This document shows positions 30,961 to 39,346 of a DNA stretch of 64,000 nucleotides, piece by piece. The notes beneath the pieces were generated by a model, which saw only the letters and a list, made by a program, of their open reading frames with translations, searched no databases and was not told where the DNA came from. Source of the stretch: an uncultured Bacilli bacterium (GTDB taxonomy: Bacteria > Bacillota_I > Bacilli_A > RF39 > UBA660); assembly GCA_947629315.1 (NCBI GenBank), contig CANRDB010000001.1, forward strand, positions 4,829 to 68,828. Reading direction: 5' to 3'. Position numbers and translations under genes: made by a program. Within the stretch, counting starts at the first letter, position 1. Each line of letters starts with the position of its first letter.

Positions 30961-31899
30961 TTATTGTATTAATGATGGAATACCTTGAACATCTACTTCC
31001 ATGCTATATCCATCGTCACCAATCGTAGCATCTGTAATAATCTTATCGATTATATCTACATAACTAGTTCCATAAGTATTATTAGCCGTCCGAATAACCA
31101 CACGAGCAGCTGTTACAGTATCTTTTTCTCTATAGGCATCTACTAAATTCATACCTTGCATATTATAACTAAACATCAAATACTGATTACCATTGACTGC
31201 TTGACGAGTAAGGGTTACATTTGTTGCCCCTGAACCTTCTATTTGTGCACGAAGTTCTTCATCACTATGACTACTAAGACTACTAAAACTTCCAGGAATC
31301 ATTTCAACTTGAGCAACCCATGTAGGATTATTCTCATCATCGGTAATTAATAGCCATTCTCCATCAACGGCTGTTGAATAATCTACTGGTACTTTATAAC
31401 TTACATTTCCTACTTTTACATTAAAGGTATTAGCAACTGGTGTAACAGATCCTCCACTAGAATTACTTCCCGTATTACTGTCGGAATTACTTCCTGAATT
31501 ACTAGTACTAACATCACACTTATCACCTTTACAACCGCCACCATTATTATCCTCTTTCTTATTAGAAACTAATAGAACTACTACAACGGCTACTGCAATC
31601 ACTACTACTGCTATCACGATAGCAATAATCATCTTATTATTTCCACCAGCCTTTGGTGGTACACTATTCATTGGTTGTTGCATCACTGGAGGAACTGGTG
31701 ATTGTGGTGCCCCAGGAACAGCTGGCATAACAGGTGTTACAGGGGATGCAGGTGCCCCTGGAGCGGCTTGTTCGATTGGTGCAACAGGTGTTGCAGGTGC
31801 TACTGGAGTTACAGGAGCAACAGGCGTTGCAGGTGCAGTTGGTGCTACTGGTGAAACAGGCTGAACTGCTGGTATTGAATTTGCATTATTTTCATTCAT
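30961..31899 (-). CDS. Type-II membrane protein: proline-rich cytoplasmic N-terminus (PVAPxTPVAP repeats), single TM, extracellular domain
   Basis: [43 protein letters not shown]…[23 protein letters not shown]. Its N-terminal module is paralogous to that of 36709..38907. Confidence 0.5.
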
Positions 31900-32152
31900 T
31901 TTTATTTCCTCTTTCCTTCTTCTTTATACTCAACACATTCATTGAGTCTATAAATGTTTCTTCAAACGATGAATTTTTGAGTAAAACAATGTTGTTTTCT
32001 GACTGCCGCTTTCCTTCTTAGTTCCTCCTTACTAACTCGTATTCCATTCCAAACTACTAAGAAAGTTACAGCAATCTATCTTCTACCTACTCTATAATGA
32101 TAATACCCCTTTTTAAAGGAATAGTCAAGTATAAAGTTACTTCTTTTATAGG

Positions 32153-33802
32153 TTATTCATATGGATAAGTAGACGAACTCACATTTGCCACTTCTTGAAT
32201 CATATCATCTGTAATCGAAGAATCTGTAGCTTCTAAAGAAATTTTCATAAGAGTAAATTCTGAAAATGTATAAAGCATCACTTTTTCAATGACACGATTC
32301 TTACCATCGTGATAAAATCCCTTATAAATATAATACTCACGACCATTCATTTTCTTTTTTTTAGAAAAAGTAAGCAATTGATAGGTGCCGTATCTAGAAT
32401 TATAATCTTTTATCGTTTTATTTAAAATATCGATGTGAGAAGTAATGATTTGTTCCGCATCAGTATAAACATTATCCAACTGGTAATCTAACATATATTT
32501 ATAGTAAGAACTTAAGAATTCGTAAGTATAATCCATATAGTAAGATCTACTACCAAATATATCAGTAGAATATAAATAATTCGTAATCTCTAGCCAATGA
32601 TTTGGTAATTGGATAGTCCATTGTTCTGCAAGATGTTCGGACTGATTGACAATCCTTTTTAGATTAGAGTATAGATTATCTCCCCTCATCTCTGTATTCG
32701 TATAAAAACCTACTTCTTTAGCAGAAGTTACACGGATATGATTGACCAATTCAGCAGGTACACTATCGCTATCAATGGTGATTCTCAAAGTACAGTTTTT
32801 CGCAATCTCAAAAAGCATTGTAACTTCTTCTGTTTCAAAAGGATTTATATAGGATTCACTACTTGAGAAAGTATAGGTTTCTCGAAAAATATAAAGTGGA
32901 TAGGCGCTGTCTTCTACTTTTTCAAGAGTAGTTTGATAGTTTTGATACATTTGAGAGTTCTGTCTTTTAAACTGGGAATCTGCATACATATCATCCAAAA
33001 CAGTATAGATTGGATATAAACTGGTCATAAAACTAACTTCAAAATTTAATACTGTATCCTCATGTTCATACCGATATCGATAATGAGAGACATTTGACTC
33101 AAAACGAGTTAATTCTAAAACATCCGGTATTTCGTATTCAATTCTATAGTTTACACTAGCGAGTTCCCCTTTTTTGGTTTTGAGAAATTGGTTATTTAAA
33201 TCTTTATCTTGATTCCAGCCAATACTAGAAAGTTCCATTGGGTACTGATAATTTTGCTGCTCCTGTTGAGGATGAACTAGTGAGAAATCTTCTAACATGT
33301 ATTCAAAACTATCCAATAAAATATCAAACTGTTGATGAGGTGCCTGATAACTCCACATCACGATTCCCTCATCTATTTTGGTAAAAATAAATAAAATCTG
33401 ATTCTCTGCCGATTCATAGAGAACCTGATATCCTGGATATTGGCGTTTAGAAATTGTAATATCTTCTTCAGCAATTAATTCATAACCTTCATTTTGTTTA
33501 CTAAATTCATATAGTAATGTTCCTTTTAAATTTTCCAATGTTGTATAATCCGTTTCTTCTAGAGGAAGATACTGTAAAGAAACAGAACTCTCATCATGAC
33601 TTAAAACCGTCTGATATTCCTGTTCTTCTTGTACTTTCCATGTAGTATCATAATGGAATGTATAATAGTCATTCTCATATACTCTCGTTTGAATACGACT
33701 TGGATTCCATACTATATAGGCAATTACACAAGAGATTCCTAATGTCATCGTTACAAAGAAAGCAATCACTACTAATTGATATTTCTTCCACCAGTTTTTC
33801 AT
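32153..33802 (-). CDS. Signal-anchored hypothetical protein, last gene of the peptidase operon
   Basis: N-terminal TM (KYQLVVIAFFVTMTLGISCVIAYIVW). The start overlaps the stop of the upstream gene by 4 bp. Confidence 0.4.
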   Translation of the reverse strand: MKNWWKKYQLVVIAFFVTMTLGISCVIAYIVWNPSRIQTRVYENDYYTFHYDTTWKVQEEQEYQTVLSHDESSVSLQYLPLEETDYTTLENLKGTLLYEFSKQNEGYELIAEEDITISKRQYPGYQVLYESAENQILFIFTKIDEGIVMWSYQAPHQQFDILLDSFEYMLEDFSLVHPQQEQQNYQYPMELSSIGWNQDKDLNNQFLKTKKGELASVNYRIEYEIPDVLELTRFESNVSHYRYRYEHEDTVLNFEVSFMTSLYPIYTVLDDMYADSQFKRQNSQMYQNYQTTLEKVEDSAYPLYIFRETYTFSSSESYINPFETEEVTMLFEIAKNCTLRITIDSDSVPAELVNHIRVTSAKEVGFYTNTEMRGDNLYSNLKRIVNQSEHLAEQWTIQLPNHWLEITNYLYSTDIFGSRSYYMDYTYEFLSSYYKYMLDYQLDNVYTDAEQIITSHIDILNKTIKDYNSRYGTYQLLTFSKKKKMNGREYYIYKGFYHDGKNRVIEKVMLYTFSEFTLMKISLEATDSSITDDMIQEVANVSSSTYPYE

Positions 33803-38907: not shown

Positions 38908-38926
38908 TTTTTTTACTCCTTACTTT

Positions 38927-39346
38927 TTATTGGCAAGTATAACCTTGCTCCTCTAAGTTTTTTTGATAATTGTCATAGGTTAGTCGTGAGAGTTGTAAAT
39001 CAGACATTGTTTCCTCACTCATCTTTTCAATATCATAGGTCACAACCATCGAATAACTCTTCCCATCGACTGTTGTTTTAAAAGTTACTCCTTTTTTATC
39101 GCCGTATTGTTGTTGTAACAATTTTTCTGACAGTTTTTGAGAAGACTGGGCCAACTCTTCACTTTCATAGGTTTGCGAATAAGTCGTTCTCACCTTGACC
39201 ATGACATCGTCTTTATAATCAACTTTATATTTTAAAACCGTACCGTCCTTTTCTACTGATTCACATTCCAATGTTTTATTATTTCCACAACCAGTTGTCA
39301 AAATAATAACACTTAAAATGATAAAACAAAGGATTGTCTCTCTCAT
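38927..39346 (-). CDS. Lipoprotein (DUF1307/YehR-like)
   Basis: MRETILCFIILSVIILTTGCGNN lipobox. RBS GGAGG. Confidence 0.55.
   Translation of the reverse strand: MRETILCFIILSVIILTTGCGNNKTLECESVEKDGTVLKYKVDYKDDVMVKVRTTYSQTYESEELAQSSQKLSEKLLQQQYGDKKGVTFKTTVDGKSYSMVVTYDIEKMSEETMSDLQLSRLTYDNYQKNLEEQGYTCQ

Follow-up and report, generated by a model that had tools for sequence, protein, structure and literature searches.

A probable composite surface locus with two membrane-tethered peptidases and a recombined proline-rich tail in an uncultured gut Bacilli bacterium

The window analysed here, a stretch of 64 kb from contig CANRDB010000001.1 of an uncultured Bacilli bacterium (positions 4,829 to 68,828), within which all tests on its own genes were made, contains six co-directional open reading frames (ORFs) on the minus strand, termed F, E, D, C, B and A in the order of their transcription. 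Our reading, to which we assign a probability of roughly 0.6, is that these genes form a composite surface locus, in which two membrane-tethered peptidases, E and D, are combined with non-catalytic partners, while the N-terminal tails of the proteins serve as spacers, one of which was recombined. In terms of gene order, the locus is probably a fusion of two conserved modules, namely F-E...A and D-C-B-A. E and D would thus constitute two catalytic subunits cutting protein substrates at the outer face of the cytoplasmic membrane, whereas C, B, A and F would have no catalytic role and serve instead in binding or as a scaffold, presenting substrates to the enzymes or restraining them. As for the N-terminal tails, they would act as interchangeable, disordered cytoplasmic spacers, which may consist of a zinc ribbon and a linker, be rich in Q/N or in proline, or be absent. 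Finally, the 5' terminal part of A, which starts about 20 nt before the ATG and extends to the VPPK preceding the transmembrane segment (TM), would have been copied onto E by recombination in the lineage of the window, so that both proteins would share the arrangement MNENN...PVAP...VPPK.

The window has a GC content of 32-37% and encodes, among others, Germane-domain and collagen-like proteins. Its nearest relatives are metagenome-assembled genomes labelled 'uncultured Bacilli bacterium' from the gut of rabbit, mouse and human, and the host is a low-GC, probably spore-forming, uncultured gut member of the Bacilli.

Gene order and the two modules

Conservation of the locus was surveyed by tblastn of the window proteins against 80 loci centred on E homologues, complemented by a second survey starting from homologues of D. 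Among the 80 E-centred loci, the complete order E-D-C-B-A together with a convergent GT2-TPR glycosyltransferase gene is found in L004, L005 and L014 only, and partially in L002. The GT2-TPR gene is 68-71% identical and takes the same position in L004, L005, L006 and L014. In L006, the order F-F-E is directly followed by an A orthologue, D, C and B being absent. L003, which harbours the closest E homologue (54% identity), shares the order serS-srtB-F-E with the window, at which point its contig stops, and L001 features serS-E alone. One to three F paralogues with a canonical L(T/S)GC motif are located upstream of E in L002, L003, L005, L006 and L014.

The genes D-C-B-A, in turn, occur without the C11 peptidase gene E and without F in L081, L082/83, L084 and L085, that is, in each of the five contexts sampled outside the clade of the window. 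In these loci the four genes overlap or nearly abut, and in L085 they directly follow serS. D-C-B-A is therewith a conserved four-gene cassette. An iterated hidden Markov model of the A ectodomain, applied to the fetched loci, revealed A-family genes beside E in about 24 of them, where they often start 5-26 nt past the E stop codon, and likewise as the terminal gene of D-C-B-A. Because A-family genes both adjoin E and close D-C-B-A, A is the common last gene of the E-A pair and of the cassette, and the window places D-C-B between E and A. The first-pass annotation had described an operon headed by proline-rich modules, with A as a mere neighbour; the surveys point rather to a fusion of F-E...A and D-C-B-A, to both of which A would belong.

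Some contexts of the cassette contain further genes. In L081 and L084, D-C-B-A is followed by more small zinc-ribbon membrane proteins (13584-16292 in L081, 13559-14658 in L084) and preceded by a divergent gene for an XRE-type regulator (7430-7867). In L081, a gene of the FHA-FtsK/SpoIIIE (EssC-like) type comes next after the zinc-ribbon membrane proteins.

With respect to the window itself, an ORF check confirmed the six genes with the content, coordinates, strand and junctions first reported. F and E are separated by 19 bp, whereas the D/C and C/B junctions are 4-bp overlaps (ATGA). The E/D gap amounts to 28 bp if D is read from a GTG start (extending D to 36680) and to 61 bp from the ATG at 36647. 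Since all homologues begin at the latter position (MxCxKCG; MKCFHC... in D), this ATG is the true start of D. The B/A gap measures 253 bp in the window as against 17-20 bp in relatives. Scans for promoters and terminators at the locus gave results no better than chance, and a search of the 253-bp B/A spacer for a zinc-ribbon remnant found none.

Membrane topology, the two peptidases and the adjacent sortase

All six proteins start with a TM, a signal peptide or a lipobox, one apiece, and a Lys-rich flank lies on the N-terminal side of the TM, which bears out the extracytoplasmic nature first ascribed to the locus. The basic residues preceding the TM are evident in E (VPPKKNNK), D (KKTKNRNH) and B (MKNWWKK) and likewise in A, and are followed by neutral or acidic sequence on the other side. 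Moreover, orthologous tails often carry zinc ribbons. On account of the positive-inside rule and these zinc ribbons, the tails are predicted to be cytoplasmic and the catalytic domains to be extracellular. The architecture recalls the zinc-ribbon-linker-TM anchors known from surface proteins of Firmicutes. In D, in the A orthologues and in many homologues of E, an initial CxxC...CxxC is succeeded by a linker of low complexity, then by a cluster of Lys residues and a single TM, whereas A and E of the window keep the linker only and are devoid of a zinc ribbon. We take these anchors to be of the PF13240 type, as in TcaA, and know of no system in which the function of such zinc-ribbon anchors is established.

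E matches the C11 peptidase family (PF03415) at E=1e-31 (111.3 bits, cutoff 25.8), and its profile aligns with clostripain (9cip) at E=7e-15. Among 33 homologues, H256-G257 is invariant and C300 is conserved in at least 90%; both motifs align with NHGGG and DACLMG of clostripain. E is hence a clostripain-family peptidase with an intact His/Cys dyad, and apparently an active one. It resembles the members of MEROPS family C11 (clostripain, PmC11, fragipain) in its PF03415 match, the His-Gly and Cys motifs and its extracytoplasmic site, but differs from these enzymes in having at its N-terminus a type-II anchor that includes a long cytoplasmic tail, about 250 additional C-terminal residues, for which Pfam at E<=10 gave nothing usable, and a genomic pairing with an A-family membrane protein. 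C11 peptidases are abundant in gut anaerobes, and their partners are largely uncharacterised.

The second peptidase, D, consists of a zinc ribbon with four conserved cysteines, a Lys/Arg cluster, a single TM and a domain of about 285 residues. The zinc-ribbon match (E=9e-5) stays under the gathering score, though the four cysteines are nearly invariant. The domain searches suggested by the first-pass annotation returned the C11 family for E and an S1-like family for C but no M-family for D, which carries HEMGH: its ectodomain met no peptidase family in Pfam, including ATLF, at E<=0.1, and a profile of D against PDB sequences matched through the zinc ribbon alone. Nevertheless, D belongs to a large family of at least 863 clusters, the top 120 of which are 43-63% identical. 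Across 32 sequences, H263-E264-x-x-H267 and D351-E352-T-I-A-E356-A-F-H-D are invariant and Y348 and Y350 nearly so; D therefore carries an HExxH motif, a downstream Glu (E352 or E356) as putative third zinc ligand and a Tyr nearby. The best structural matches of a D model are anthrax lethal factor (LF) and the Pro-Pro endopeptidases (PPEPs) PPEP-3 and PPEP-2, although the Foldseek match is not significant. PPEPs combine HExxH with a Tyr and, on a later helix, a Glu-Glu pair (PMC12828418). D is comparable to LF and the M34/ATLF-like zincins, including PPEP-1, -2 and -3, in its helix-borne HExxH and the Tyr-preceded downstream acidic helix (DETIAEAFHD) (PMC12828418). It differs in the spacing from HExxH to Glu, which is about 89 residues in D versus about 40 in PPEP-3, in being membrane-anchored via zinc ribbon and TM rather than secreted, in its constant company of C, B and A, and in lacking a sequence-level match to Pfam ATLF or any PDB chain. 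D is thus apparently an active peptidase, which may work like an M34/ATLF-type gluzincin without being filed in that family; Pro-Pro specificity is not inferable from the fold alone. The idea that the proline-rich tails are themselves substrates of a PPEP-like D was ruled out, as the positive-inside rule and the zinc ribbons of the orthologues place the two on opposite sides of the membrane.

The resemblance to PPEPs leads to a further interpretation, in which the locus takes part in sortase-linked processing of surface proteins, the zincin, the C11 enzyme or both releasing adhesins anchored by sortase B, as does PPEP-1 of C. difficile. Substrates of Pro-Pro endopeptidases are surface proteins (PMC12828418), and a predicted class B sortase adjoins the locus, as first annotated: its product exceeds the cutoff of TIGR03064 (167.6 bits, cutoff 153.75) and matches B. 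anthracis SrtB (2oqw) at E=1e-41. L003 likewise has srtB next to the locus, and in L011 (4682-5680) and L017 (7166-8170) the gene is located upstream of E; in L020 (13004-15424) and L035 (6925-9639), E is flanked by large proteins with an NPKTG or NPSTG sorting signal at their end. The association of sortase B with this C11 subfamily hence appears to recur, albeit weakly. A sortase or substrate link exists in only about 6 of the 80 E loci. On the contrary, no ORF of the window ends in a sorting signal, comprising motif, hydrophobic stretch and basic tail, which extends to all 64 kb what had been remarked for the neighbouring genes, and no sortase accompanies D-C-B-A in L081 to L085. In addition, the window sortase has His (YAHA) and Cys (TLSTC) but a Lys (NNEKLVIHAKL) at the position of the conserved catalytic Arg of B. 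anthracis SrtB; this Lys is also present in the L003 sortase (8456-9355), whereas those of L011 and L017 retain GRKV. As the fold, moreover, says nothing of Pro-Pro specificity, we regard a sortase-linked role as unlikely.

The proline-rich tail shared by E and A

The N-terminal modules of E and A were first noticed as similar, and this similarity holds at both protein and DNA level. In BLASTP they are 41% identical over 95 residues (E=3e-11). Because residue shuffling at the protein level cannot tell tail homology from PxxP periodicity, codon-level DNA tests were used: the tails align over about 270 nt including the ribosome-binding site (RBS) and start region, and the best local segment scores 102 as compared with 24.5±3.7 (maximum 43) in 1000 codon shuffles, corresponding to a z of about 19-21. 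The non-periodic landmarks MNENN, PVAPIE, TPVMPxxPG, SPVPxV and VPPK are collinear in both tails. Proline-rich ORFs in the window are limited to E, A and one collagen-like ORF. The tails are truly homologous at the DNA level. Duplication by an assembly artefact was ruled out, given that identity reaches only about 77% and the flanks are unique.

The tails of related proteins present a different picture. Neither window tail resembles those of its own closest orthologues (z<=4). E orthologues have Q/N/G/Y-rich tails of the type MNNQNQGYP..., and remoter ones a zinc ribbon or just six residues before the TM, whereas the closest A orthologues begin with MNCKKCGSPL..., i.e. a zinc ribbon, followed by a proline-rich linker. 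A match between E and A tails was sought in ten other genomes possessing both genes and was found in none (z<=3.5). In L032, L037 and L039, A-family proteins display a variant tail, MNEN...PVEPVAP without zinc ribbon, whose z to both window tails is 4-10; the score of E against A in the window even exceeds that of orthologous tails of different species, such as L032/L037 at 96. The sharing of the tail is thus limited to the lineage of the window, and on grounds of parsimony the copy most likely went from A to E.

A profile built from both tails and run against 1.84 billion representatives retrieved A alone below 1e-30, in addition to 188 weak hits. In some of the latter, other ectodomains bear an N-terminal anchor of the type MNE(N/E)N...Pro-rich...KK-TM (P0261, which is F-like, P0362, P0219 and P0238). 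The eventuality considered at the outset, that the proline-rich segments are extracellular linkers of unrelated proteins devoid of further paralogues, is therefore not what was found. Rather, this type of anchor is probably generic in these bacteria and compositionally plastic, and does not seem to constitute a conserved docking domain. In P0261 (289 aa), the anchor, MNEENN...Pro-rich...KNNK-TM, is joined to an ectodomain ending in EKAGYTCK, and the protein is a member of the F-lipoprotein family in which a type-II anchor takes the place of the lipobox.

These observations bear directly on the proposal of the first-pass annotation that the proline-rich tail is a specific docking module, drawing E, A and other bearers to one cytoplasmic partner. 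The occurrence of the same module on two proteins of one locus, as well as of like anchors on the other ectodomains just named, is in line with docking, and PxxP-type periodicity is compatible with SH3- or WW-like reader domains. This proposal is opposed by the Q/N/G/Y-rich tails, zinc ribbons or 6-residue stubs of the E orthologues, by the missing correspondence of E and A tails within each of the ten other genomes, and by the retrieval of A alone at high significance. Furthermore, no motif is conserved beyond composition and periodicity, and no gene linked to the locus offers itself as a candidate partner. As the shared tail seems to be a copy confined to one lineage, a common docking partner is quite improbable, while a generic role for such tails may still be compatible with the evidence.

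Non-catalytic partners, neighbouring genes and significance

C combines a signal peptide with a central Trypsin_2 domain (E=2e-9, 38.7 bits, cutoff 27.6), in agreement with its initial description as S1-like. Its best match among solved structures is the S1C-like sensor domain of RsgI9 (7sjy, E=7e-9), ahead of HtrA1, 2 and 3 (E=1e-7 to 1e-4). In alignments with HtrA3 and RsgI9, however, Ser stands at the position of the catalytic His, and Ala at that of the catalytic Ser. In the window and in the homologues of L005 and L081-L085, TNAHV becomes TTW(S/N)(F/Y) and GNSGGP becomes D(A/G/E)GSP, whereas the catalytic Asp is kept in the window, in alignment with that of HTRA3. Both positions were read in 6 sequences, those of L014 and L004 being aligned only, and in all 6 the catalytic His and Ser are lost, so that C is best regarded as a pseudo-protease. 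The RsgI9 domain of C. thermocellum is protease-like and binds cellulose (PMC12203970), and C likewise seems to employ a protease scaffold for a non-proteolytic end. In contrast to RsgI9 and the HtrA/DegP-type S1C peptidases, it is devoid of PDZ domain, anti-sigma domain and TM. It also lacks the catalytic His and Ser, and its N- and C-terminal flanking domains match no family, Pfam at E<=10 having given nothing usable for the terminal domains.

B is predicted from a structure model to consist of three tandem PsbP/DcrB-like domains on a TM anchor. The model is shallow, the homologue search having provided two proteins only, and has a predicted local distance difference test score (pLDDT) of 59, with 70-85 for domains 1-2. 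B would differ from proteins of the PsbP/Mog1p/DUF1795 fold (DcrB, LpqN, PA0094, Eag chaperones) by its three tandem copies on a single TM anchor; in addition, it is without a sequence-level family match, no usable Pfam match being obtained at E<=10, and domain 3 is modelled with low confidence. For the A ectodomain, Pfam at E<=10 was equally without usable match. A relationship of A to the PsbP-like domains was dropped, as hhalign of the A-family ectodomain against B was not significant (best E=0.007, domain 3). F carries the lipobox-like sequence ILTTGC (TTGC) and matches no Pfam family even at E<=10.

The features of C give rise to yet another interpretation, in which D-C-B-A is a device for trans-membrane sensing or regulated proteolysis, the pseudo-HtrA sensing a ligand in the manner of RsgI9, and D and A signalling inward through their zinc ribbons. 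In favour of this, the closest solved relative of C is a non-proteolytic sensor domain (PMC12203970), zinc ribbons are located on the cytoplasmic side in two of the four proteins, and L081 and L084 encode an XRE-type regulator upstream, in divergent orientation. Nevertheless, the cassette lacks a consistent link to any sigma factor, kinase or regulator, with none in the window, L082 and L085; C, having a signal peptide only, cannot itself signal across the membrane; and the zinc ribbon is dispensable in A of the window. A sensing function is consequently very unlikely.

Finally, compositional convergence of unrelated low-complexity segments, for which the similar content of about 35% Pro with Val, Ala and Thr and the similar residue-shuffle z-scores of many PVAP-type tails might speak, was tested and rejected as hardly credible, since the score of 102 lies far above the codon-shuffle null, tops that of interspecies orthologous tails and comes with about 77% DNA identity at a single 3-nt gap, collinear landmarks and a shared stretch of RBS and start codon.

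The reading of a composite surface locus with two tethered peptidases has several points to contend with as well. A complex of the six proteins, or their action on common substrates, is a prediction; the B model is of low overall confidence; and the A ectodomain of about 170 residues falls into an unnamed family without an assigned fold. Parsimony underlies the direction of the tail copy, with the closest A orthologues having the zinc ribbon that A of the window lacks. In addition, A may be transcribed separately in the window, as the 253-bp B/A gap contains a promoter-like site, which itself does not rise above chance.

Table 1. Coordinates of the genes and features of the locus, given as positions within the window.
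Feature	Position	Strand	Description
F	38927..39346	-	Small lipoprotein, 139 aa, starting with MRETILCFIILSVIILTTGC; C-terminal EEQGYTCQ
E	36709..38907	-	Type-II membrane C11 (clostripain-family) cysteine peptidase, 732 aa
E tail	38599-38907	-	Codons 1-103; followed by TM
E-tail tract homologous to A tail	38704..38827	-	~77% DNA identity, one 3-nt gap
E C11 domain	37477-38448	-	Residues 154-477; PF03415
D	35493..36647	-	Zinc ribbon (CxxC...CxxC, 36579-36647), TM, putative HExxH zincin ectodomain
D HEMGH	35847-35861	-	In addition, DETIAEAFHD close to the C-terminus
C	33799..35496	-	Secreted three-domain protein; putative degenerate HtrA/S1C-like domain, residues ~263-441 (34174-34710)
B	32153..33802	-	N-terminal TM, then three predicted PsbP/DcrB (Mog1p)-like domains
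A	30961..31899	-	Proline-rich tail (codons 1-88, 31636-31899), TM, S/N/G-rich stalk, ~170-aa ectodomain
A-tail tract homologous to E tail	31684..31810	-	From local DNA alignment
Second shared stretch, 34 nt	31885-31918 (A) vs 38893-38926 (E)		RBS and start codon
Class B sortase	39580..40512	+	Divergent; predicted from TIGR03064
GT2-TPR glycosyltransferase	29840..30925	+	Pfam match; convergent; conserved neighbour of A

Beyond the locus, the window harbours a collagen-like gene (GPT-repeat, BclA-like) at 18448-29834 on the plus strand, which three elements divide into four pieces, all in frame. A large serine recombinase is encoded in every element (21123-23120, plus; 23282-24796, minus; 27831-29420, plus), and every junction has the core (GC)AACTG. 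Joining 18448-18703, 23150-23266, 26104-26148 and 29446-29834 yields an uninterrupted GXY ORF of 268 codons; the sequences expected at the rejoined junctions are GGAGCAACTGGTCCTACGGGG, GGAGCAACTGGTCCAGTAGG and GGTCCTACTGGTTCTACTGG. The last piece, which lacks a start codon, directly follows the stop codon of the recombinase. As further cargo, element 1 carries a 744-aa acyltransferase_3 protein, element 2 a 342-aa protein with C-terminal zinc ribbons (24984-26012, minus) and element 3 a 464-aa protein without family. It would seem that a probable exosporium gene is interrupted here by three gene-intervening elements, similar to sporulation-specific ones (PMC5595907, PMC4191935, PMC5025042), with the excision being predicted here from sequence. 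In L014, 18653-21385 comprises a serine recombinase (649 aa) and a start-less collagen/C1q-like fragment, followed by GT2-TPR (17563-18645), with the core CAACTG at the fragment boundary and GTCC directly after it; given this same layout and core, the interruption of the collagen gene appears to be conserved across genomes.

Moreover, secA is present as two ORFs on the plus strand (14652-15368 and 15400-18366) with a total of about 1226 residues, about 330 more than the usual SecA. The 238-aa ORF covers the N-terminal part of the DEAD motor, and the 988-aa ORF gives a gapped match to the remainder. The arrangement could be due to a split, an insertion or an error.

With regard to its significance, the catalytic domains of the locus fall in known peptidase clans, so that nothing in them is categorically new. 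What is new is the D family, a large and conserved family of apparent membrane-anchored zincins, which has neither a Pfam model nor a name and is always accompanied by the same three partners, including a pseudo-protease. In addition, the A-family protein links D-C-B-A genomically to C11 peptidases. It is conceivable, though doubtful, that the four proteins of D-C-B-A make up an envelope machine not described so far, which is widespread in gut Bacilli and built around a tethered lethal-factor-like zincin and a dead HtrA, in which A is a common adaptor for either the zincin or the C11 peptidase and interchangeable tails couple proteolysis outside to the cell interior. The transfer of the tail would furthermore provide a clean example of recombination moving a low-complexity cytoplasmic anchor between genes, and it cautions that shared low-complexity modules need not be conserved interaction domains. 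Taken together, D-C-B-A would constitute a testable, hitherto uncharacterised envelope module of gut Bacilli.

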